This document shows positions 19,860 through 59,859 of a stretch of 64,000 bases of DNA, piece after piece (positions within the stretch are counted from its first letter, which is position 1; each line of letters opens with the position of its first letter). The position numbers were made by a program, and so were the translations under genes. This stretch comes from Escherichia phage EC6, in the sequence record JX560968. One strand, 5' to 3'. Below the pieces are notes generated by a model. It made no database searches, was not told the DNA's origin, and saw only the letters and a list, made by a program, of their open reading frames with translations.

Positions 19860-20405
19860 TCAAAAGTGTCCTTTTACTTGTGGAACATAAATTTCAAAGG
19901 TTGCTTTACCATCCTCTGATGGTTTTGACTGTACCTTTGTAAATACACGACCATCATACAACTTCTCGAAGAAGTTTTCAAAAGGTAAATGCACAGTGAC
20001 CTCTTCAGTAACTTTATGAAAGACTGTATGGAACACTACATCAGCATACGGTAAAGCATTGACAAGGACACCTGCACCACCAATTACAAAGACATCTTCA
20101 TCAATAGAGCTATCAAGATACTTCAAAAATGCTCCAAATGACTCTTTACTGGCTTTAGCATACATTACACCATCTTTGCCAAAGTCTATGCCTAAGTATG
20201 GTACAGAGTTTGTTAAGATGAGGTTTGCACGTTCTGGTAAAGGTTTACTACCCAGAGTCTTAAAAGTCTCATTACCCATTACCACTAAGTTGTTTTTAGT
20301 GAGTCTCTTAAACTCTTGCATGTCCTGTTTATGTCGAGGCCACGGCATACCAGTTGGAGTACCAAACTCACCATTTTCACCACTTGCAAAGATTAATTTA
20401 ATCAT
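19860..20405 (-). CDS. frd: dihydrofolate reductase
   Basis: 181 aa; MIKLIFASGENGEFG...MPWP, VVMGNETF, LPERANLILT motifs; adjacent to thyA. Confidence 0.8.
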   Translation of the reverse strand: MIKLIFASGENGEFGTPTGMPWPRHKQDMQEFKRLTKNNLVVMGNETFKTLGSKPLPERANLILTNSVPYLGIDFGKDGVMYAKASKESFGAFLKYLDSSIDEDVFVIGGAGVLVNALPYADVVFHTVFHKVTEEVTVHLPFENFFEKLYDGRVFTKVQSKPSEDGKATFEIYVPQVKGHF

Positions 20406-20662
20406 TTTGTAAACCCTCTCTTAATGAACCAGTTGATAACAGTCTTCACAGCTTTATTACTATGGTAGATTAAGTGTGGTGTAGGTTGGTATGAACCATA
20501 AGCCCAGAAAGCAATGATTTCACTACACCCTGTACACCTTGTACTCTCTTCAGCAATATGACCGTTGACTATCTCACTCACCTCACCTTGCAAGTCTGTA
20601 CACCCACAATGTGGACAACGTATAGGTGTTCCATCAGACTCATAGCAGTGTTCAATTTTCAT
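20402..20662 (-). CDS. small zinc-ribbon protein
   Basis: CPHCGC...CTGC cysteine pairs. Confidence 0.3.
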   Translation of the reverse strand: MKIEHCYESDGTPIRCPHCGCTDLQGEVSEIVNGHIAEESTRCTGCSEIIAFWAYGSYQPTPHLIYHSNKAVKTVINWFIKRGFTK

Positions 20663-22680: not shown

Positions 22681-22708
22681 AGTATACTCACCAAATTATC
22701 TATGTCAA
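22681..22708 (-). promoter_or_regulatory. sigma70-like promoter (TTGACA-N16-TATACT) on minus strand
   Basis: Minus-strand TTGACA at 22708-22703 and TATACT at 22686-22681, just downstream of ligase stop. Confidence 0.35.
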
Positions 22709-22715
22709 CAACTTT

Positions 22716-23855
22716 TTATTCATAATCCCTAATAACTAGCCCAACAGGGAACTGTAAAGAACCCTTACGAGTCATCTTCTGGAACTGAACCGTTAGAGGT
22801 TTCCCGATAAACTCTTCAGGATGCTCAGCAAGATACTGTTTCTTCTCATGAGTAGTCTTCCATGAGACATCTACAAAGACGTTAGGAAGAGTCTCTACAA
22901 CGAACTTGCCATGACCACGCTTATCAGTCTTTACACCAGTCACTTTAAACTCTTCAGTGTGCATCTTCTTGTGCTTAATCAAGAAGTATGAACGGTGACA
23001 ACACTCATAGAAGGAGTCTTCAGAGATTGAACGGTACATTGCACCTTCAAACTTAGCTTCAACCCACTTATCATGAGCTTCATCAAACTCTTCCCAAGAA
23101 TTTACACGACGAGACTTAACAGGAACAACTTTACAGCCGTCTCTGAAGTCATTCAATGGTGAAGTCTCAATGATATCTCTACGCTCAGGCCACGTCTTAG
23201 TACTATCACAGATATCGTACCAGTAAAACTTGAGTAGGTGTCGGTCAGGATTGTCTTCATTTTTAATCATAGAGACAATATCTTCTAAGTCCCACCCATG
23301 AGCATAAATCTCACCATCAAACTCATCAACATCTTTGTGGAGCCTTAACATTGCCATAATGTCAGGTATTAGTTCAGTAGGGATTTTGTAAACAGTATTC
23401 TCACGAGAGTATGCTGTAAATACACTGCCAATGCTCAAGTTCCTTGAAATCCTACAACGTACACCATCAAGTTTCGGTTGAGCATCAGCAGGGAACTTCA
23501 GATACTTTGTATGGCTAACCTTTGCAGCATCATGAGCAAGCTGTACACCTACCTTCTCAGTATTCTGTGCAGACTCTTTTGTGTAAGCATAACCTTTGCG
23601 GTCAACCTGCTTTTTATACTTTGCAGCAACTTCAAAGAGAGCTTGCTGTTCAGCGTTACGCTCATTCTTTTTACCAATGTTTTTAGGTTCTGCTGTATAC
23701 TCTTCAAACATCATCTTGCCATTTTCTTTACCGTAGGTTGTAATAACTTTGTCACCTACAGCAACGCATGACCAGACGTTGAAAGAGCCATCTTTATTTT
23801 GTTTGTACAGTATTGTCATTTTATTCCTCTGAGTGATACCAAGTATTGCAAGCAT
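22716..23855 (-). CDS. ATP-dependent DNA ligase (nucleotidyltransferase family)
   Basis: KLDGVRC (motif I KxDGxR), DGEIYAHG (motif III-like), EGAMYRS, LIKHKK (motif V-like); true start may be the downstream Met. Confidence 0.6.
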   Translation of the reverse strand: MLAILGITQRNKMTILYKQNKDGSFNVWSCVAVGDKVITTYGKENGKMMFEEYTAEPKNIGKKNERNAEQQALFEVAAKYKKQVDRKGYAYTKESAQNTEKVGVQLAHDAAKVSHTKYLKFPADAQPKLDGVRCRISRNLSIGSVFTAYSRENTVYKIPTELIPDIMAMLRLHKDVDEFDGEIYAHGWDLEDIVSMIKNEDNPDRHLLKFYWYDICDSTKTWPERRDIIETSPLNDFRDGCKVVPVKSRRVNSWEEFDEAHDKWVEAKFEGAMYRSISEDSFYECCHRSYFLIKHKKMHTEEFKVTGVKTDKRGHGKFVVETLPNVFVDVSWKTTHEKKQYLAEHPEEFIGKPLTVQFQKMTRKGSLQFPVGLVIRDYE

Positions 23856-24012
23856 TACATGCGTAAAGCTCTAAGTCATTTTTATCTGGTTTATGGAAAC
23901 AGTTTGCTCCGCAGTGGCAACGAAACGGCTTTCCACCAACTGTCAGGATGAAGGATTGAACCTTTCCATCAGGAGTTCGTACAGCATTTTTATGCTTATC
24001 TTCTTTGTTCAT
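23821..24012 (-). CDS. small zinc-ribbon protein, paralog A
   Basis: FRCHCGANCFHKPD...YACNACN; paralogous to 24337..24540. Confidence 0.35.
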   Translation of the reverse strand: MNKEDKHKNAVRTPDGKVQSFILTVGGKPFRCHCGANCFHKPDKNDLELYACNACNTWYHSEE

Positions 24013-24091
24013 TTATCTCTTGCCTCACAAGCTATGCAGCCTTTTGAGTAGAAGGAGTGCCAAGCGTGTACACCAAAGTCTTCTTTGATAA

Positions 24092-24340
24092 TTAAATTGA
24101 ATTTATAGCTTCCATGTGTTTTTCGTAGAAATCTAAACATTTTTCATCTTGCTCCTTTATGTAACTATCATAAAATTCAGGTGATTCTGGTCTTTCGCCA
24201 AAAGAAATAACCTTCAGGTAGTACTTCCCATATGTGGAGTTATCTAACCAAGAGTCAAATAGTAATTTCTTAGTATTAGTCTTTGGAGGGATTACCAAGC
24301 TTTTCTCATACAATTCCTTCATCTCTTGAGTTATCTTCAT
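24092..24340 (-). CDS. hypothetical protein
   Basis: 82-aa ORF between the two paralogs. Confidence 0.3.
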   Translation of the reverse strand: MKITQEMKELYEKSLVIPPKTNTKKLLFDSWLDNSTYGKYYLKVISFGERPESPEFYDSYIKEQDEKCLDFYEKHMEAINSI

Positions 24341-24540
24341 TGCATATCCTTAATCTTACCTAAGAACCTTACACCACAACTATTACACTCGTATATGTCT
24401 AAATTTGTGTTATCAGGTTTATGGAAACAGTTTGACCCACAACGACACCGGAATAGTTTACCATCAACACGGAGAATGAATGTTTCAAGCTCACCATCTT
24501 CTGTAAGAACTGCATTCTTAAATTTATCTTCTACAGTCAT
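24337..24540 (-). CDS. small zinc-ribbon protein, paralog B
   Basis: FRCRCGSNCFHKPD...YECNSCG; shares (E)DK.KNAV...FIL.V.GK.FRC.CG.NCFHKPD with 23821..24012. Confidence 0.35.
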   Translation of the reverse strand: MTVEDKFKNAVLTEDGELETFILRVDGKLFRCRCGSNCFHKPDNTNLDIYECNSCGVRFLGKIKDMQ

Positions 24541-24743
24541 TTTCTCTTACCACCAATCTCTACGTCGATAACTTGAACATCACCAGCAACATCAAACTTA
24601 TGAATGATGCTTCCCACAGTGTAAGTCCAACCCTCTATGCGAACCAACTCACCTTCTCGTGGGACGATTGGATTACGTTGAGCTACGGTTGTAGTGGAGT
24701 GAACAACATCATAACAATAGATATAGTTTACTAGGACTTCCAT
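24537..24743 (-). CDS. hypothetical protein
   Basis: 68-aa ORF. Confidence 0.3.
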   Translation of the reverse strand: MEVLVNYIYCYDVVHSTTTVAQRNPIVPREGELVRIEGWTYTVGSIIHKFDVAGDVQVIDVEIGGKRK

Positions 24744-25443: not shown

Positions 25444-26000
25444 TTAGTGTACTTCAAGCCAGCTTTTACCAACCTTACCAGTACCTGTAACAAGCGTTTC
25501 TTTCTTAAGACCTAAGTTTTTAGAAGCTTGCCCATAATACCAGTCAGTAACTGCTTTCACTTCTGCCGTCATACTTTCTGGACATTCCCAACTCGTCTCG
25601 TCGTGATAGGAGCACAATAAACGAGCACCTATAGCTGGTTTGCGACCGTTCAACTTCATCAAACCTTCGTCAATCATACGACGGCAAGCAAGGTTAATTG
25701 CTTCATTCTGAACCTGCGCCTCACTACCCATTAGGGTATAGTTTAATAGTTTATGCGGTGATTTACACCATAACCACGCCCCAGCGACCTGAATGTACCC
25801 ACCCTTAGCGATTGCAGCACTCTTGCCGAAAACCTCTTCTAATGCCTTCTTAGTGGCCTTAAAATCGGCTTCTAAGTTATCAAGTAGTTTCTTAATCTTT
25901 GGTAGACGCATATAGTAGGTCTGCTTAGTTAATGCACCTTCCTCTGTAGAAGCTGCCTTAATGGTCTTGGCAAACTTCTCATCACCTGCACCGAACAATA
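25444..26000 (-). CDS. family A DNA polymerase, exon 2 (C-terminal part incl. motif C)
   Basis: Begins ..LFGAGDEKFAKTIKA (second half of Pol A motif B, cf. T7 ...YGAGDEK) and contains LLCSYHDETSWECP (motif C HDE); track ORF starts at TTG. Confidence 0.7.
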
Positions 26001-26805
26001 CATCTGGTCAATACACTCGCAAGGTGTACCAGTTCTCTTATGAACTTCTCCGCATTTCTACGGAGTGTCGGACTATATCACGCAGTAGTAATACTACCGT
26101 TGCACTTGGGAATGGTCATTAGCTTACCACCCTACTCTACTCAGTTCATACATTAAGTATGCTTTTCGATAGTCTCTGAACGTTTCTCTGTTAGGAACTC
26201 TAAAATACTATTATTTACTAAGGTATGCAATTGCTCTCTTCATGTTCTCTATACTATCTGAGAACAGCCCAAGACCTCTGTTACAGTTGTGACACAGCAT
26301 ACCTCTTACCTGTCCTGTTTTGTGGTCATGGTCAACAACCAGCTTGGCTTTATGTCTTGAACCATCCATGATAAAACCTTCACCACCGCAGATTTGACAC
26401 TTGTGACCACACTTACTTAGTAACTCTTCGACCTCTTCTCTTTCTAAGCCGTAAGTCCTTAAGTAATAGTTCTTTACCCTTCCCTTTTCTCCACAAGCAG
26501 AACTGCAATACGTCTGTCTTGCTGTTCTAGGTGTAAACTGGTTATTGCAGCTTGGACATATTTTCTCTATGACACGACTTGCTGCTCTTCTGTCTACTTC
26601 AAGAACGCAGTTTCTACAACGTTTTTGATTGTACTGATATGGCTTAAACTCTTCGCCACATCTGGAACAAACTCTTTCTTTATAACCTGCCATTGTCTCT
26701 CTCCCATTTCTACTATAGGAGTCCTAACAGAGACTTCGCTGCTGATTACCATATCTTTACAGACTTAGGCTTCCAGCAATTCACAACGTTTTACATGCGC
26801 CACTG
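26001..26805 (-). mobile_element. group I intron (about 805 nt) in DNA polymerase gene, carrying an HNH homing endonuclease ORF
   Basis: Exon 1 ends ...AUCUAUGCGU; intron starts CAGUG-GCGCAU (P1: exon AUGCGU pairs with GCGCAU, U-G at splice site); intron ends ...GACCAGAUG; 3' part has GACUAUCG, GUAGGGU, GAUAUAGUCC elements like T4 td-type introns; joined exons restore ...KAKNGIYA-LLFGAGDEK. Confidence 0.6.
26211..26693 (-). CDS. HNH homing endonuclease (endonuclease VII-like) inside the intron
   Basis: Cys-rich zinc-binding N-terminus and HNH core LVVDHDHKTGQVRGMLCHNCNRGLG. Confidence 0.7.
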   Translation of the reverse strand: MAGYKERVCSRCGEEFKPYQYNQKRCRNCVLEVDRRAASRVIEKICPSCNNQFTPRTARQTYCSSACGEKGRVKNYYLRTYGLEREEVEELLSKCGHKCQICGGEGFIMDGSRHKAKLVVDHDHKTGQVRGMLCHNCNRGLGLFSDSIENMKRAIAYLSK

Positions 26806-28948
26806 ACGCATAGATACCATTCTTAGCCTTCTTACGGCCTTTAGTTATCTCGTGAAGAAGTTCTTCATCCTGAGTTTCTCTACAACGAATAATGTCATCC
26901 TCTTTGTTCAATGCAAAGTAGATGCTGTTAAGCGTATGTGCATCAGTACCTGTATACACCTCATATAAGTCATTATCCATATCGTAACGACAATACTTGT
27001 CAGTCTCTGGATTGAGGTACTTGTCAAGATGTTTGCAGTAGTACCGTCCATCATCCTGTTTAGTGAACTCGACAAACTCTTTACCTTCAGTTACTGCTTT
27101 AGTGAACTCTTTATCACCCATAAAGTTACACAGTAAAACAAGCTGTGCAGAGTTCTGGTCAACTGAAACGATGTTAGTCCCTTCCTCACAAATCCACACC
27201 TCCCTCATAGGTGCTCCATAGACAGCAGCACCAGATGGTACGTTTACAATACCATACTGCGTCATACGTCCAGTTGAAGTACCAAACACCATTGCACCAG
27301 CACTAAGGCGACCATCTGGACGAATCTGGTTCAACCAACCTTTTTCATCATCCTTTGAGTTCTCAATAGTTCTGCGTCGGTGCATCAAAGTATAGTACTT
27401 AGCAATCTTCTGTCCAAGTTCACCTTCAATCGTATCATAAGATGATTCAGTAAGTTTTGGTGAAGTACGGATTAAGCAAGGCTCAAGCAAATCTGTGTAC
27501 TTCTTCACAGACCAGTTATGCTCAATGTACTGTACACCTTCATGTTCAACATAACTCAAACCACACCGCTCAACCATTTCCTGCCACTTAGGATGCTTTG
27601 TAATCATCTTTTTATTGTCTTTGAAACGACAAACTTTGACAGGGTGACCATCTGAGTCTTTCTTGTAGTTCCAGTCATCTGGAATCCAACCAACTGATTT
27701 CAAGTAGTCTTTAACAACTGCTACCTGAGTCATACGAGAAACTTCAAACTCAATTGGTGTATATGGTGCATCAATCAAACCTGTGTAGCGACTTGACTCA
27801 AGTTCAAAGTGGTTAACAACGTGGCTGTTATAGTACTTCACAGTTTTGACTGTTTTTACTGGCTTCCAGTCTTTGCATTTCTTACCAATCTTTGCATTCA
27901 ACTCATTGCAAATTGCACGAGCATCCTTCATTGCTACAAAGCCTTCCTTGTACTCTTCACCAGTTACAGAGTTGGTTGGTGTATAGCAATTTCTCTTTTC
28001 AATGTTAAAAATCTTTGTAGTTGGCTTACCAAATGGCTTGATTTCGTATGTCTGCATCTCACCGTTACGTACCTGCTGACGATACTTTGTCTTAGGATAC
28101 TTGGTAATCCTCTTCAGTCCATCTGCATGACCAAATGTTTCAACATACTCATTCCAAGCTTTTGCAAACTCTTCTCCAGTGACTTTACCTTTGGTCTTAA
28201 TAGTTGGAGGAAGATGTGGTTCAACCTCTGAAGCAAGCTCATTAGTCAACTTGTCAAGTTCCTTTACATGGAACTCCATAAGCTCTTTATCAGCTTTCCA
28301 ACCATTGATAGCTTGTTGACTCATCCAGAAAGATGTTTCTTTAGCTCGCATGTAAGTTTCATAAGTGTCTATACCACACTTCTTAAGCTTGAGATACTCG
28401 TTATCAAGTGCCCGTTTAGTTTTGGCGTTAATACGGATATCTTCTACAACACGAGTGAAGATTTCTGCATTCCACACACCCCAATGTTCAATCTCTGGTT
28501 TACGAACACCAACACGAGCACCCCATGCAGCCAAACCATGAGCACCTTTATAACCCTTTGGAGTTGGTCTATCCATCCACTGAACACGAGACTGGATAAG
28601 AGAATCCTGAAAGAAATTACTCCACGGTTTACACTTTGGATTATCAAAGTTCCATAAATCAGGTGCAATGTGATTGAAAACCCACCAGTCATAACCGAGA
28701 CCGTTGTGGATGCAAAGACGTTTTGCCTTTAACGCAAACTCAATACCTTCACGTAAGCCACCCTTGATGTACTTGGTATACTTGTGACCGAGGATAGGCT
28801 CATCTGTAAAGACCCATACAGGTGGCTCTTCATCATCAGATTTATAGTCTGCGAAAGCCATTACGTGCACTTTAGTGAACTCAAGGAGTAAACCATCAGT
28901 TTCTGTATCACCAACTAAATGTAAGTTTTTAAAATCTACGTTTTCCAT
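26806..28948 (-). CDS. family A DNA polymerase, exon 1 (3'-5' exonuclease and N-terminal polymerase domains)
   Basis: Exo motif LVGDTETDGL (cf. Pol I DTETDSL); ends ...GRKKAKNGIYA (first half of motif B); likely start is ATG at 28948 (GAGGGAG RBS) rather than track start 28978. Confidence 0.75.
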
Positions 28949-28978
28949 TTTTACTCCCTCTAAAATCATTAACCTCAT

Positions 28979-31243: not shown

Positions 31244-31444
31244 ATGAAGATGAGAGTAAAAGACAATTTTAAAGTTATTGACCACCGTTTAGTGGAACTC
31301 TCATCTCTTTCCAATGAGGTAATGATTGAACGTCTTAAGAGAGTTGAATCACGAAGGAAAGAGATTGCAGATGAAATTCATGAACTGGACAAGATTGAAA
31401 ATGGATTGAAGGCAGAACTACAACGAAGAGGTGCTAATGTCTAA
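31244..31444 (+). CDS. hypothetical coiled-coil protein
   Basis: 66-aa ORF. Confidence 0.3.
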   Translation: MKMRVKDNFKVIDHRLVELSSLSNEVMIERLKRVESRRKEIADEIHELDKIENGLKAELQRRGANV

Positions 31445-33422
31445 AGGTCGTAAATTGAAAGAGGCTGGTCAGTTTGTTGGTCATTGCGCATGTCCACGTT
31501 GTGGTTCATCAGATGCTGGTTCAATCTACCATCATGACGATGATTCTTATTCAATGACTTGCTTTAGCTGTAACAAAGGTTTCCCAGAGTGGGATTTTGA
31601 TAAAGGACAAATCGTGAGCACTTATTCTACTGGTTCAGATAATAAAAACCGTACTTTTCGTGGAATGGATTTAGACGATGTAAAAGAAAACCTAGAAGCG
31701 ATGGACTTGAAAGACAGGAAGATTCCTGCAAAAGTTCTTGAGCGTTTGGGTATTAAGGTTGACATTGACAGTGATGGTGAAATTGACGCGCATTTCTACC
31801 CAACTTACAAACGCAATGAAGATGGCAAGCTAGAGCATGTTGGCTACCGTGTTCGTCACCGTTACCCAGAAGACCATCCAAAAGAGCACCTACGAGGTAA
31901 GTTAAAAGACTTTTCTGGTGGTGTTGGAGACATTAAAGGTGAACTGGCAATGTTCGGTTCATGGATTGCTCCAGAAGGTGGTAACCGTCTATTCATCTGG
32001 GAAGGTGAGATGGAATGTGCGACAGCAATCTATATGACTTCTCTTGCGATTAAGGACAAATCTCGTCGTAAGAATTACTGTCATGTATCTGTTCCGTCAG
32101 GTGCAAACATCAAGTCTATCAAAGATAACTATCAGTACATCACATCATTTGATGAAATTTACTTGTGCTTTGATAACGATGAAGCAGGTGCTAAAGCTAC
32201 CAAAGAGGCTGCTGGTATCTTACCTATTGAGAAAGTTCGTTTATTCCAGTATCCAGAGGGTGTAAAAGACCTTAACGAATGGTGGACAAAGTTCTATAAA
32301 GAGAAAGACACAGTTCTGGAAGGATTTAAGCAGCGTATCTACAACGCACCTCGTTATTGCCCTGCTGGTATCAAGAACTTTGCAGATGGTTTTGAGGCAA
32401 TGAAGAACCGTGGTCAGATTCCATTGATTCCTTTCCCAGAATCTTTCGGGGATTTGAACAGACTGACTTATGGTGGTTACGGTTTAGGCGAGATTACGAC
32501 TATCGCAGCACCATCTTCAGTAGGTAAGTCAGCTTACACTCGTGAGATGATTTATTCAGCTTGGAAAGAAACTGATTATAATATCGGTGTAATTCCTGTA
32601 GAAGATACCTATGAAGAGTTGATGGAGATGCTCTGTGCAATCCACCTAAGCAAGCAGATTTCTGAGATTCCTTATGACGAACGTGATTGGGATGAATTGA
32701 AGGAAGCACACGCAGAGCTATCTAAAGGTCGTCGTATCCATATCGTTGACCATCAAGGGGCAATTGACCAAGATAACCTGCTGGAGTTTGTTGACTATCT
32801 TGTTAATAGCTTAGACTGTAAGATTATTATTCTTGACCCTATTACGTTGGCTCTGTCACGTTCTGATACGGATGAAGAGGAAGTTTTGTCTGAGCTATTG
32901 CGTCGTTGCAAACGCTACCAGTATGCGCAGGTAAACGTATGTCACGTTCGTAAGAGTGCAGGTGGTCAGAAAGCCAACTCTGAAGGTGGAGATATCTCTG
33001 AAGAGGATATTAAGGGTTCTGGTGCATACTTCCAGATTTCTATGAACAACATTCTGTTAATGCGTAACAAGGTTGACCCAGACCCTGTTAAGAAAAACTT
33101 GACAAAAATCAAGTTAACTAAGTGTCGTCGTCATGGTAAGTCAACAGGTATTGCTGGCCATACTTGGTACAATCCAGATACAGGACGTCTCATCAAAGCT
33201 TCTGGATGTGGTGTTGACATTGATGGTGCAGCAGAAAATATTCGGCAACAGTTTGGTATTGGTGAAGCTGAAGACCATTACGATGACTCTTTACCTCATT
33301 ATGAGGATGAAGTGTTTGACCGTGAGACTGGTGAAGTCTATACTGAAGAACAGCGTCAAAGCTCAACGATTCCACCTGTATTAATTGAGGATGCAGATGA
33401 CTGCCCGTTTGAAACTGAGTGA
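31437..33422 (+). CDS. DNA primase-helicase (T7 gp4-like)
   Basis: Zinc-ribbon CPRCGSSD...CFSCN; TOPRIM FIWEGEMECA and LCFDNDEAG; helicase Walker A APSSVGKSAYT; start taken at ATG 31437. Confidence 0.7.
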   Translation: MSKGRKLKEAGQFVGHCACPRCGSSDAGSIYHHDDDSYSMTCFSCNKGFPEWDFDKGQIVSTYSTGSDNKNRTFRGMDLDDVKENLEAMDLKDRKIPAKVLERLGIKVDIDSDGEIDAHFYPTYKRNEDGKLEHVGYRVRHRYPEDHPKEHLRGKLKDFSGGVGDIKGELAMFGSWIAPEGGNRLFIWEGEMECATAIYMTSLAIKDKSRRKNYCHVSVPSGANIKSIKDNYQYITSFDEIYLCFDNDEAGAKATKEAAGILPIEKVRLFQYPEGVKDLNEWWTKFYKEKDTVLEGFKQRIYNAPRYCPAGIKNFADGFEAMKNRGQIPLIPFPESFGDLNRLTYGGYGLGEITTIAAPSSVGKSAYTREMIYSAWKETDYNIGVIPVEDTYEELMEMLCAIHLSKQISEIPYDERDWDELKEAHAELSKGRRIHIVDHQGAIDQDNLLEFVDYLVNSLDCKIIILDPITLALSRSDTDEEEVLSELLRRCKRYQYAQVNVCHVRKSAGGQKANSEGGDISEEDIKGSGAYFQISMNNILLMRNKVDPDPVKKNLTKIKLTKCRRHGKSTGIAGHTWYNPDTGRLIKASGCGVDIDGAAENIRQQFGIGEAEDHYDDSLPHYEDEVFDRETGEVYTEEQRQSSTIPPVLIEDADDCPFETE

Positions 33423-59365: not shown

Positions 59366-59411
59366 GCCTTTCTTATCTGGGAAATCTTTCAGGTAAGGAG
59401 GGCTTTTTCAT
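59366..59411 (+). terminator. imperfect long hairpin with U-tract (terminator-like)
   Basis: AGCCTTTCTTATCTGG...CAGGTAAGGAGGGCT then TTTTTCATTTC. Confidence 0.35.
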
Positions 59412-59592
59412 TTCAGGATTGTGCAGGTAGAGTTCTGTAGAGAAATCTGTAGAGAAAATTTTGAACTCCAAAGAGAAAATTCATTTTCAAACTGTGCAGG
59501 TAATCTCCAAAGAGCTTTTTCATTTTCAAAACGTGCAGATAAAAATCAGGTCGGGCAAGAAAAATCATTTTAGAATTGTGCAGGTAGGTGGG
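59404..59592 (+). repeat. array of four ~26-nt direct repeats (consensus TCATTTTCAAAAnTGTGCAGGTA)
   Basis: Copies at 59404-59430, 59477-59503, 59516-59543, 59560-59590 with 40-70 nt spacing; extra AGAGAAA sub-repeats. Confidence 0.6.
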
Positions 59593-59763: not shown

Positions 59764-59859
59764 TTGACTCCTCGAACGGGTTTTTATAGTATTTGCATCA
59801 GACGGGGAGGGAGTGACCTTCCCCACTAAATAACTAACCTTAAACTAGGAGATTCAAAA
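59764..59859 (+). promoter_or_regulatory. promoter + 5' stem-loop + SD cassette (type I variant)
   Basis: TTGACT-N17-TAGTAT, then GGGGAGGGAGTGACCTTCCCC hairpin, then AACTAGGAGATTCAAAAATG. Confidence 0.55.

Follow-up and report, generated by a model that had tools for sequence, protein, structure and literature searches.

A described relative of the genes considered here is found in the Felixounavirus Bas63 (JohannRWettstein), for which genome-wide knock-outs were reported in an unreviewed preprint (PhageMaP; PMC11482910). In that work, gene g40 of Bas63 was found to be 'more nonessential' in several defence-system strains, plasmid-expressed g40 hampered growth only in cells carrying Hhe, and the authors name g40 a trigger of Hhe (PMC11482910). 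According to these authors, helicase and nuclease domains are combined in the one gene that makes up Hhe, and seven class II DNA-metabolism genes of phage T7 were likewise scored as possible Hhe triggers (PMC11482910). The preprint is silent on the zinc motif and on the protein family to which g40 appears to belong, and a literature search on Felixounavirus zinc/ligase terms and Felix O1 early genes yielded nothing specific. Here we describe two genes of this family, ZnR1 (63 amino acids, aa) and ZnR2 (67 aa), which occur as a tandem pair in a 64 kb stretch of the genome of Escherichia phage EC6 (JX560968), hereafter termed the window.

Gene numbers in the PhageMaP paper correspond to the GenBank locus tags at 65 (glutaredoxin), 79 and 80 (NAD+ synthesis) and 84 (rIIA), and from this numbering we infer that g40 is bas63_0040. 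The latter is a 72 aa gene located directly upstream of the DNA ligase gene, with the sequence MTVEDKLKNAVLTEDGELETFILRVDGKLFRCRCGSNCFHKPDKNDLELYACNACYTWYHSEVKNDNSVQTK, which matches the catalogue family phrog_5768 (E=4e-40) and carries a 10-residue C-terminal extension. The window pair belongs to the same family and occupies the same position upstream of the ligase, but Bas63 carries a single hybrid gene, whereas both unhybridised parental forms are present in the window.

More distant likenesses can be drawn with several small Cys-containing domains. The classical zinc ribbons (C-terminal ribbons of TFIIS, TFS and Rpb9; ribosomal eL43/L44e) are the best, although not significant, structural neighbours, and the ZnR proteins, with a predicted small beta-hairpin domain, two Cys pairs and a C-N-x-C-G second knuckle, may be likened to them. 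The ZnR proteins differ in the CxC spacing of the first pair, an extra N-terminal hairpin and a conserved NVFHKPD loop that those families lack. Lar (PF14354, phrog_599) is also a small Cys-rich phage accessory protein and is fused N-terminally to a ZnR domain in P0018, but neither ZnR1 nor ZnR2 matches PF14354 at E<=1, and Lar is as such a fusion partner rather than a homologue. Bas63 gene 32 is named 'Lar' ('90% homology') in the PhageMaP paper and has an equivalent in the window at 20402-20662 (minus strand); the Pfam Lar model recognises neither bas63_0032 nor this equivalent, and among the PHROGs the former hits phrog_2993 (unknown function) and no Lar entry. The zinc domain of T7-type primase-helicases (PF08273) is a Cys4 domain of similar size encoded in the replication module, with a superficially similar C..C-G ... 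C-x-x-C-x-x-W/Y pattern, but no Pfam match to this domain and no PDB sequence match was obtained for ZnR1 or ZnR2. Furthermore, the primase-helicase of the window (31431-33422, plus strand; Toprim and DnaB_C; listed reading frame starting at GTG) has its own N-terminal CACPRCG...CFSC motif (CxxC...CxxC), and a role of the ZnR proteins as a primase zinc-binding domain in trans was thus ruled out. The variable small unknown proteins found as fast-evolving accessory genes in slots between core genes, one of which interacts with a defence (Silas et al., bioRxiv 10.1101/2023.04.06.535777), provide a conceptual framework; neither the ZnR slot nor the family is named in the abstract of that work.

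The window derives from a Felixounavirus, and its region carrying the pair has 90-95% identity with numerous genomes of this group (Felix O1-like myoviruses; Ounavirinae). For the ZnR region, the nearest relative is Escherichia phage vB_EcoM_DE17. The genes lie on the minus strand, and the two copies are:

23821..24012, minus strand: ZnR1, 63 aa, the downstream copy, A-type allele; matches phrog_5768 (E=1.6e-40) with residues 1-63 on profile positions 1-63 of 66
24337..24540, minus strand: ZnR2, 67 aa, the upstream copy, B-type allele; matches phrog_5768 (E=3.4e-36) with residues 1-65 on profile positions 1-65 of 66

The original prediction, made from the sequence of the window alone, held these to be paralogs arising from a recent duplication. 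The paralogy, the positions and the minus-strand orientation are all borne out. BlastP aligns residues 1-59 of the two proteins without gaps (34/59 identical, 58%; 75% positives; E=1e-27), both proteins match phrog_5768 over their full length, and the quoted core, EDK.KNAV...FIL.V.GK.FRC.CG.NCFHKPD...Y.CN.C, is correct. The similarity, a lack of significance in which had been named as the point on which the claim could fall, is thus far beyond chance. A tblastn search and a scan with the family hidden Markov model in all six frames identified exactly two family members in the window.

The recent date, however, does not hold. Across the 59 codons in register the two genes share only 115/177 nucleotides (nt; 65%), third positions are unlike in 32/59 codons, and the Nei-Gojobori (NG86) method gives a nonsynonymous divergence (dN) of 0.28 with a saturated, and hence undefined, synonymous divergence (dS). 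In a nearest-relative test, ZnR1 and ZnR2 are not each other's closest relatives. The ZnR1 protein is 97-100% identical to single-copy genes of many other Felixounaviruses, while the 5′ half of ZnR2 shares 97% DNA identity with the Felix O1 gene, against 65% with ZnR1, and its 3′ part shares 80% DNA identity with the Suspvirus allele. The low identity, the saturated dS and the closer relatives elsewhere show the two genes to be an old, long-diverged pair by sequence comparison, the copies greatly predating the phages in which they now reside. If one small gene had recently been duplicated in place and an unrelated ORF (open reading frame) inserted afterwards, this would account for two homologous genes located 528 bp apart on the same strand. 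Such a history is nonetheless exceedingly improbable, not only on account of the divergence and the nearer relatives, but also since several phages of Salmonella and E. coli carry the tandem in its already-diverged state and a second tandem form exists, with a different (S-type) upstream copy. Ratios of dN to dS among orthologs are low, at ~0.07 for ZnR1 against other A-type genes and ~0.07 for ZnR2 against its counterparts in BPS17W1 and DE17, indicating that both copies are kept by purifying selection.

The gene was extracted from ~45 loci for a survey of its alleles. Besides the A-type (63 aa, ZnR1) and B-type (67 aa, ZnR2) alleles, an S-type allele of 61 aa is present in Suspvirus SUSP1 and also supplies the upstream copy in the second tandem form (IMG/VR contig L013), and the further forms comprise a CL1 variant and hybrids. 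The Felix O1 gene (FO1a gp88) is such a hybrid. Upstream of the motif CATAAACC, 113/117 nt are identical to ZnR2 (65% identity to ZnR1), while downstream of this motif 56/56 nt are identical to ZnR1 (54% to ZnR2). At the informative sites, 38/39 in the 5′ portion follow ZnR2 and 31/34 in the 3′ portion follow ZnR1 (Fisher p=5e-16). The Bas63 gene shows the same B/A composition at the protein level, with 42/43 of residues 1-43 identical to ZnR2 and 18/19 of residues 44-62 identical to ZnR1. These site patterns show the one ZnR gene carried by Felix O1 and by Bas63 to be a hybrid of a ZnR2 5′ half and a ZnR1 3′ half. Another hybrid, P0005, is independent of this one and is present in single copy, flanked by the conserved 68 aa gene that precedes the pair and by the ligase. 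At 42/42 sites it agrees with the S-type copy that lies upstream in L013, and at 35/35 with the A-type downstream copy of that contig (p=1e-22).

The breakpoints of both the Felix O1 and P0005 hybrids fall within the 19-mer CAAACTGTTTCCATAAACC, which is the longest in-register run identical between ZnR1 and ZnR2 and is found twice in the window:

23888..23906, minus strand: 19-nt run CAAACTGTTTCCATAAACC in ZnR1, encoding NCFHKP; putative crossover site of the hybrid alleles
24416..24434, minus strand: identical 19-nt run in ZnR2

Both hybrids combine the 5′ half of the upstream copy with the 3′ half of the downstream copy, a polarity which fits deletion by homologous recombination between direct repeats. 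We suggest that recombination between the two copies at this common run would delete the intervening cassette and leave a hybrid with a ZnR2 5′ half and a ZnR1 3′ half, namely the gene that Felix O1, Bas63 and roughly one in three relatives carry in single copy. The tandem would then be the older state and the Felix O1/Bas63 gene its deletion product, as argued by the polarity of the hybrids and the apparent confinement of B-type alleles to tandems. The latter is suggested by the records, in which ZnR2 at >=90% identity and the 82 aa ORF that follows it at >=90% are each found in seven, the overlap of the two sets having been matched by name for some records only.

Alternatively, the tandem may have been derived from single-copy forms. 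In this view, the genomes of two co-infecting phages, one carrying the B-type gene followed by the 82 aa ORF and a micro-ORF and the other the A-type gene, would have been joined when an unequal or illegitimate crossover took place at the shared ...AAGAGA(A/T)AAATGA gene junctions, and the Felix O1/Bas63 hybrids would have arisen separately, by allelic recombination between single-copy A and B genes. The junction microhomology upstream of both copies is consistent with this, as are the rarity of the tandem (7-9 of ~224-260 records; 2/25 IMG/VR contigs), the exchange of cassettes at the locus (L27, CL1 and the 52-55 aa ORF variants described below) and the mosaic flanking genes. However, neither a single-copy full B allele nor the corresponding gene order (ZnR, 82 aa ORF, micro-ORF, ligase) was found in 50,697 phage records and the IMG/VR sample, and both independent hybrids show the one polarity that deletion predicts. 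We regard a derived tandem as the less likely, and deletion from an older tandem is the order of events preferred here.

The interval between the 68 aa gene and the DNA ligase, hereafter the slot, holds the pair together with two further genes, and its features and borders in the window are:

24537..24743, minus strand: 68 aa gene, phrog_4427, conserved; upstream border of the variable slot
24092..24340, minus strand: 82 aa ORF, phrog_32421, of unknown function; opens the cassette that lies between ZnR2 and ZnR1
24009..24140, minus strand: micro-ORF, 43 aa as read, with its conserved core in the last 32 codons (24009-24107); phrog_20095 (E=3.9e-14)
22716..23819, minus strand: ATP-dependent DNA ligase, 367 aa, with the Pfam domains DNA_ligase_A_M and DNA_ligase_OB_2; downstream border of the slot

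The two copies had originally been described as separated by one unrelated ORF, which requires amendment, as the spacer contains both the 82 aa ORF and the micro-ORF that overlaps its end. A CxxC motif is present in the micro-ORF product, of which the last 27 residues match phrog_20095. In Citrobacter phage Michonne, a 32 aa gene is annotated at the same place (gp045; MSILHIISEDFGGCSWHSFFTKGCLACEARNK), and this gene is clearly homologous to the micro-ORF (...IIKEDFGVHAWHSFYSKGCIACEARDK). In L27, where homologs of the 82 aa ORF and the micro-ORF occupy the slot, the former is only 51% identical to its window counterpart and the latter 81%; when L013 is also considered, the micro-ORF is 81-91% identical and the 82 aa ORF only 51-76%. 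Ten of the last 30 micro-ORF codons are changed between the window and L27, six of them synonymously. Its conservation in L27 and Michonne with mostly synonymous changes, together with its annotation as gp045, indicates that the micro-ORF is a real micro-gene.

On the minus strand, a 3′ fragment of the DNA polymerase gene is followed by several small ORFs, the 68 aa gene and ZnR2, then by the 82 aa ORF, the 43 aa micro-ORF, ZnR1 and the ligase, with DHFR and thymidylate synthase further on. The junction sequences place the true start of the ligase at the ATG at 23819, and the ZnR1 stop lies 1 nt ahead of it. Upstream of this point, every slot gene is linked to the next by an ATGA stop/start overlap. 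The end of the 68 aa gene (...AAGAGAAAATGA) overlaps the next start codon, the start of the 82 aa ORF overlaps the ZnR2 stop, and the micro-ORF stop overlaps the ZnR1 start. Among the phages compared, the 68 aa gene always closes with ...GGTAAGAGAAAATGA, the following gene beginning at that ATG, while the micro-ORF closes with ...GGCAAGAGATAAATGA and likewise runs into the next ATG. A scan for promoters and terminators detected no such site within the slot. Given this and the overlapping or 1-nt-spaced neighbours, we read the slot genes as part of a polymerase-to-ligase operon, within the replication and nucleotide-metabolism block.

Two further features were observed along this gene block. 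A near-consensus sigma-70-like promoter (TTGACA, 16-nt spacer, TATACT; 11/12 positions) is located just 3′ of the ligase (22681-22708, minus strand). In the family A DNA polymerase gene, a 160 aa Endonuclease VII/HNH-type ORF separates a 737 aa part from a 184 aa part (25444-25998, 26211-26693 and 26765-28978, minus strand); the 160 aa product is probably a homing endonuclease, and HNH or AP2-HNH ORFs are found at the same polymerase site in related phages.

The slot varies extensively among the relatives, and the following contents were observed:

Empty, with an ATGA overlap between the 68 aa gene and the ligase: REP10 and Sf17
Micro-ORF only: Michonne
82 aa ORF and micro-ORF, no ZnR gene: L27
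Single ZnR gene: many phages
ZnR gene, with a 174-176 aa ORF between it and the ligase: CL1 and L067
52-55 aa ORF (MKPKQTMTDATFTV...HFIKRRS...) between the 68 aa gene and a ZnR gene: L054, L055, L059 and L062 (IMG/VR)
Tandem: the window, BPS17W1, DE17, KEP2, pSJ21 and L013

In a census of 25 IMG/VR contigs carrying the 68 aa gene, the slot was empty in seven, held an A-type gene in seven, a hybrid in eight and an S-type gene in one, and contained a tandem in two. Among GenBank phage records, the 68 aa gene is present in 255, and a ZnR gene in ~178 Felix-like records. The slot is thus empty or free of ZnR in many relatives that retain the ligase, which indicates that ZnR is dispensable and not tied to the ligase. 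In Escherichia phage bumzen (L037), an unannotated, 5′-truncated ZnR sequence is found at 1501-1671, where the ligase annotation covers the remnant and the 68 aa gene is missing; it looks like a natural pseudogene of the family.

The position of the ZnR genes could also suggest that they encode a replication or repair cofactor of the adjacent ligase, such as a DNA-binding zinc module acting in trans. The gene is directly upstream of, and translationally coupled to, the ligase gene in Felixounavirus and Suspvirus, lies near SSB in the Chaseviridae phage Fifi44 and near ERF/RecT-exonuclease-SSB genes in prophages, and is labelled 'DNA ligase' in several GenBank records. Such a cofactor is nevertheless quite improbable. 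The slot lacks ZnR in ~28-30% of the relatives that keep the ligase, and a whole-genome search of the complete L27 genome identified no family member anywhere. Furthermore, the gene is located apart from the ligase in Kolesnikvirus, Stephanstirmvirinae and metagenomic phages, no ligase fusion occurs among 158 representative proteins, and the net charge of the ZnR proteins is about zero. The label itself, carried by 61-72 aa ZnR genes of BPS17W1 (BPS17W1_66 and _68), DE17 (WAX24963), Fifi44 (gp41, a 61 aa ZnR), fjerdesal (fjerdesal_96) and others, is a propagated misannotation, since Pfam finds no ligase domain in the 63 and 67 aa proteins, while the neighbouring 367 aa gene has both ligase domains. 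A fusion of ZnR to DNA ligase was also considered and rejected, as Fifi44, DE17 and BPS17W1 show separate 61-67 aa genes, with the label representing annotation carry-over.

The family phrog_5768 is catalogued with unknown function and has no structure, Pfam or NCBIfam model. Searches of Pfam, NCBIfam and PADLOC returned no model for the family core, only sub-threshold noise (DUF7129, CSL, ECs_2282, RpoP), and PADLOC gave no match for ZnR1, ZnR2 or the 82 aa ORF. A profile search against 1.84 billion representative proteins recovered 550 clusters with E<=1e-3, of which 119 have E<=1e-10. Among the best 158 members, 67 are stand-alone proteins of <=80 aa, while the domain is C-terminal in 81 proteins of 90-200 aa and N-terminal in 12. 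The N-terminal fusion partners recognised with Pfam and PHROGs include Lar restriction alleviation, NUDIX, dATP/dGTP pyrophosphohydrolase, Tad2-like, RyR and DUF2934 domains, with MazG-like domains also among the frequent ones; most partners are unrecognised. End-to-end matches to the phrog_5768 profile are also given by the fused forms, as well as by distant family members encoded in Pseudomonas and Cupriavidus prophages. In these prophages the gene occupies the early-left accessory region, between a CI-like repressor and the ERF/RecT-exonuclease-SSB genes, while in three large metagenomic (virulent-phage) contigs it is found within arrays of small unknown genes only. The 'zinc-binding protein' YdaE of the Rac prophage, considered as a possible relative in the same early-left position, was rejected as unrelated because its Cys pattern differs.

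The phrog_5768 domain is beta-rich, comprises ~55 residues and follows the pattern CxC...CxxC. Across 238 family domains, C32, C34, C52 and C55 are present in 235-237, N37, F39 and N53 in 232-234, and G27, H40 and P42 in 209-221. The earlier description of a small Cys4 protein requires qualification: each window protein has five Cys residues, of which only the four named are invariant in the family. The fifth is found at position 36 in most members, occupies position 38 (C38, a Val in most of the family) in the Felix-like proteins and is absent in 30 members, and is as such unlikely to be a ligand. A structure model built from a 10-sequence alignment reached a predicted local distance difference test (pLDDT) score of 65, at which a fold search is meaningless, while one from a 74-sequence alignment reached 90 and looks zinc-ribbon-like. 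In the latter model, the C52-N-x-C55-(G) knuckle is canonical and lies between predicted strands 49-52 and 58-60, whereas the first pair, C32-x-C34-G, has non-canonical spacing and is followed by predicted strand 38-40. ZnR is probably a zinc-stabilised binding module, and the near-neutral charge of both proteins, read off the sequences, would be slightly more in keeping with binding to proteins than with binding to, or mimicry of, DNA. A PDB profile search yielded only spurious Y-x-C-x-x-C-G-x-x-F matches to C2H2 finger linkers.

Another alternative is that ZnR, in the way of the TFIIS, Rpb9 and TFS C-terminal ribbons, is a zinc ribbon akin to a transcription factor, docking on RNA polymerase and thereby redirecting host transcription. 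Fold searches with the model of pLDDT 90, however, returned no significant match, the scores being in the noise for a model of ~60 residues (Foldseek E>=0.57), the first knuckle is CxC rather than CxxC, and no relationship was found at the sequence level. We consider this role very improbable.

We propose instead that ZnR would be produced together with the replication genes and act on a host or DNA-metabolism component, and that this activity, or ZnR itself, may be sensed by host defences such as Hhe. Defence pressure would then drive allele turnover, hybrid formation, frequent loss and occasional carriage of two copies. Taken as a whole, the reading of an old tandem that was reduced by deletion to a hybrid, and of ZnR as a dispensable, defence-sensed zinc module, is one that we hold with moderate confidence. 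Several points weigh against it. The label 'gene 74' in the PhageMaP paper fits its locus tag poorly, which bears on the identification of g40, and the Hhe result comprises one unreviewed screen and one growth-curve test, performed on the hybrid and not on ZnR1 or ZnR2. Trigger status, moreover, does not reveal the protein's own function. The direction from tandem to hybrid is drawn from the hybrid polarity and the allele distribution rather than from a rooted phylogeny, and the flanking genes are mosaic, with the window ligase 98-99% identical to those of hybrid-carrying phages and 94% identical to that of the tandem phage BPS17W1.

The pair belongs to a phage accessory gene family that is in itself ordinary, although its history is informative, and the tandem is already present, unremarked, in a handful of GenBank phages. 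What is added here is the old age of the pair, the chimeric nature of the widespread Felix O1/Bas63 gene and a link from this chimera to a reported defence trigger: Bas63 g40, as identified above, would be a natural chimera of alleles that survive side by side in the window phage and a few relatives. The A, B and S alleles, the B/A and S/A hybrids and the null state provide a ready panel for mapping what Hhe and the other screened defences sense. An uncharacterised Cys4 domain of at least 550 clusters, with no Pfam model, is furthermore defined, and the 'DNA ligase' misannotation propagated among these small ORFs is corrected. The repeated fusions to anti-restriction, nucleotide-hydrolase and signal-sponge domains make the phrog_5768 domain a reasonable candidate for host-takeover or counter-defence studies. 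A more speculative extension, which we think rather doubtful, is that phrog_5768 proteins are widespread effectors sensed by defences, with the two halves (the N-terminal hairpin and the C-terminal knuckle) serving as separately exchangeable specificity modules, the invariant 19-nt core as a built-in crossover point and the tandem as a reservoir for escape hybrids and deletions. If true, recombination would here offer a simple means of diversifying a protein that defences sense, with its function kept.

Repeated intergenic modules of ~110 nt were also observed elsewhere in the window, between 59800 and 64000 on the plus strand. A GC-rich hairpin (ACGGGGAGGG...CCTTCCCCAC) occurs five times in these modules, at 59802, 61225, 62099, 63325 and 63890, and a conserved ribosome-binding site/start box, CCTTAAACTAGGAGATTCAAAAATG, which follows the hairpin, occurs eight times, preceding successive small ORFs. 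Four repeats of 31-38 nt are located nearby, at 59399-59587.

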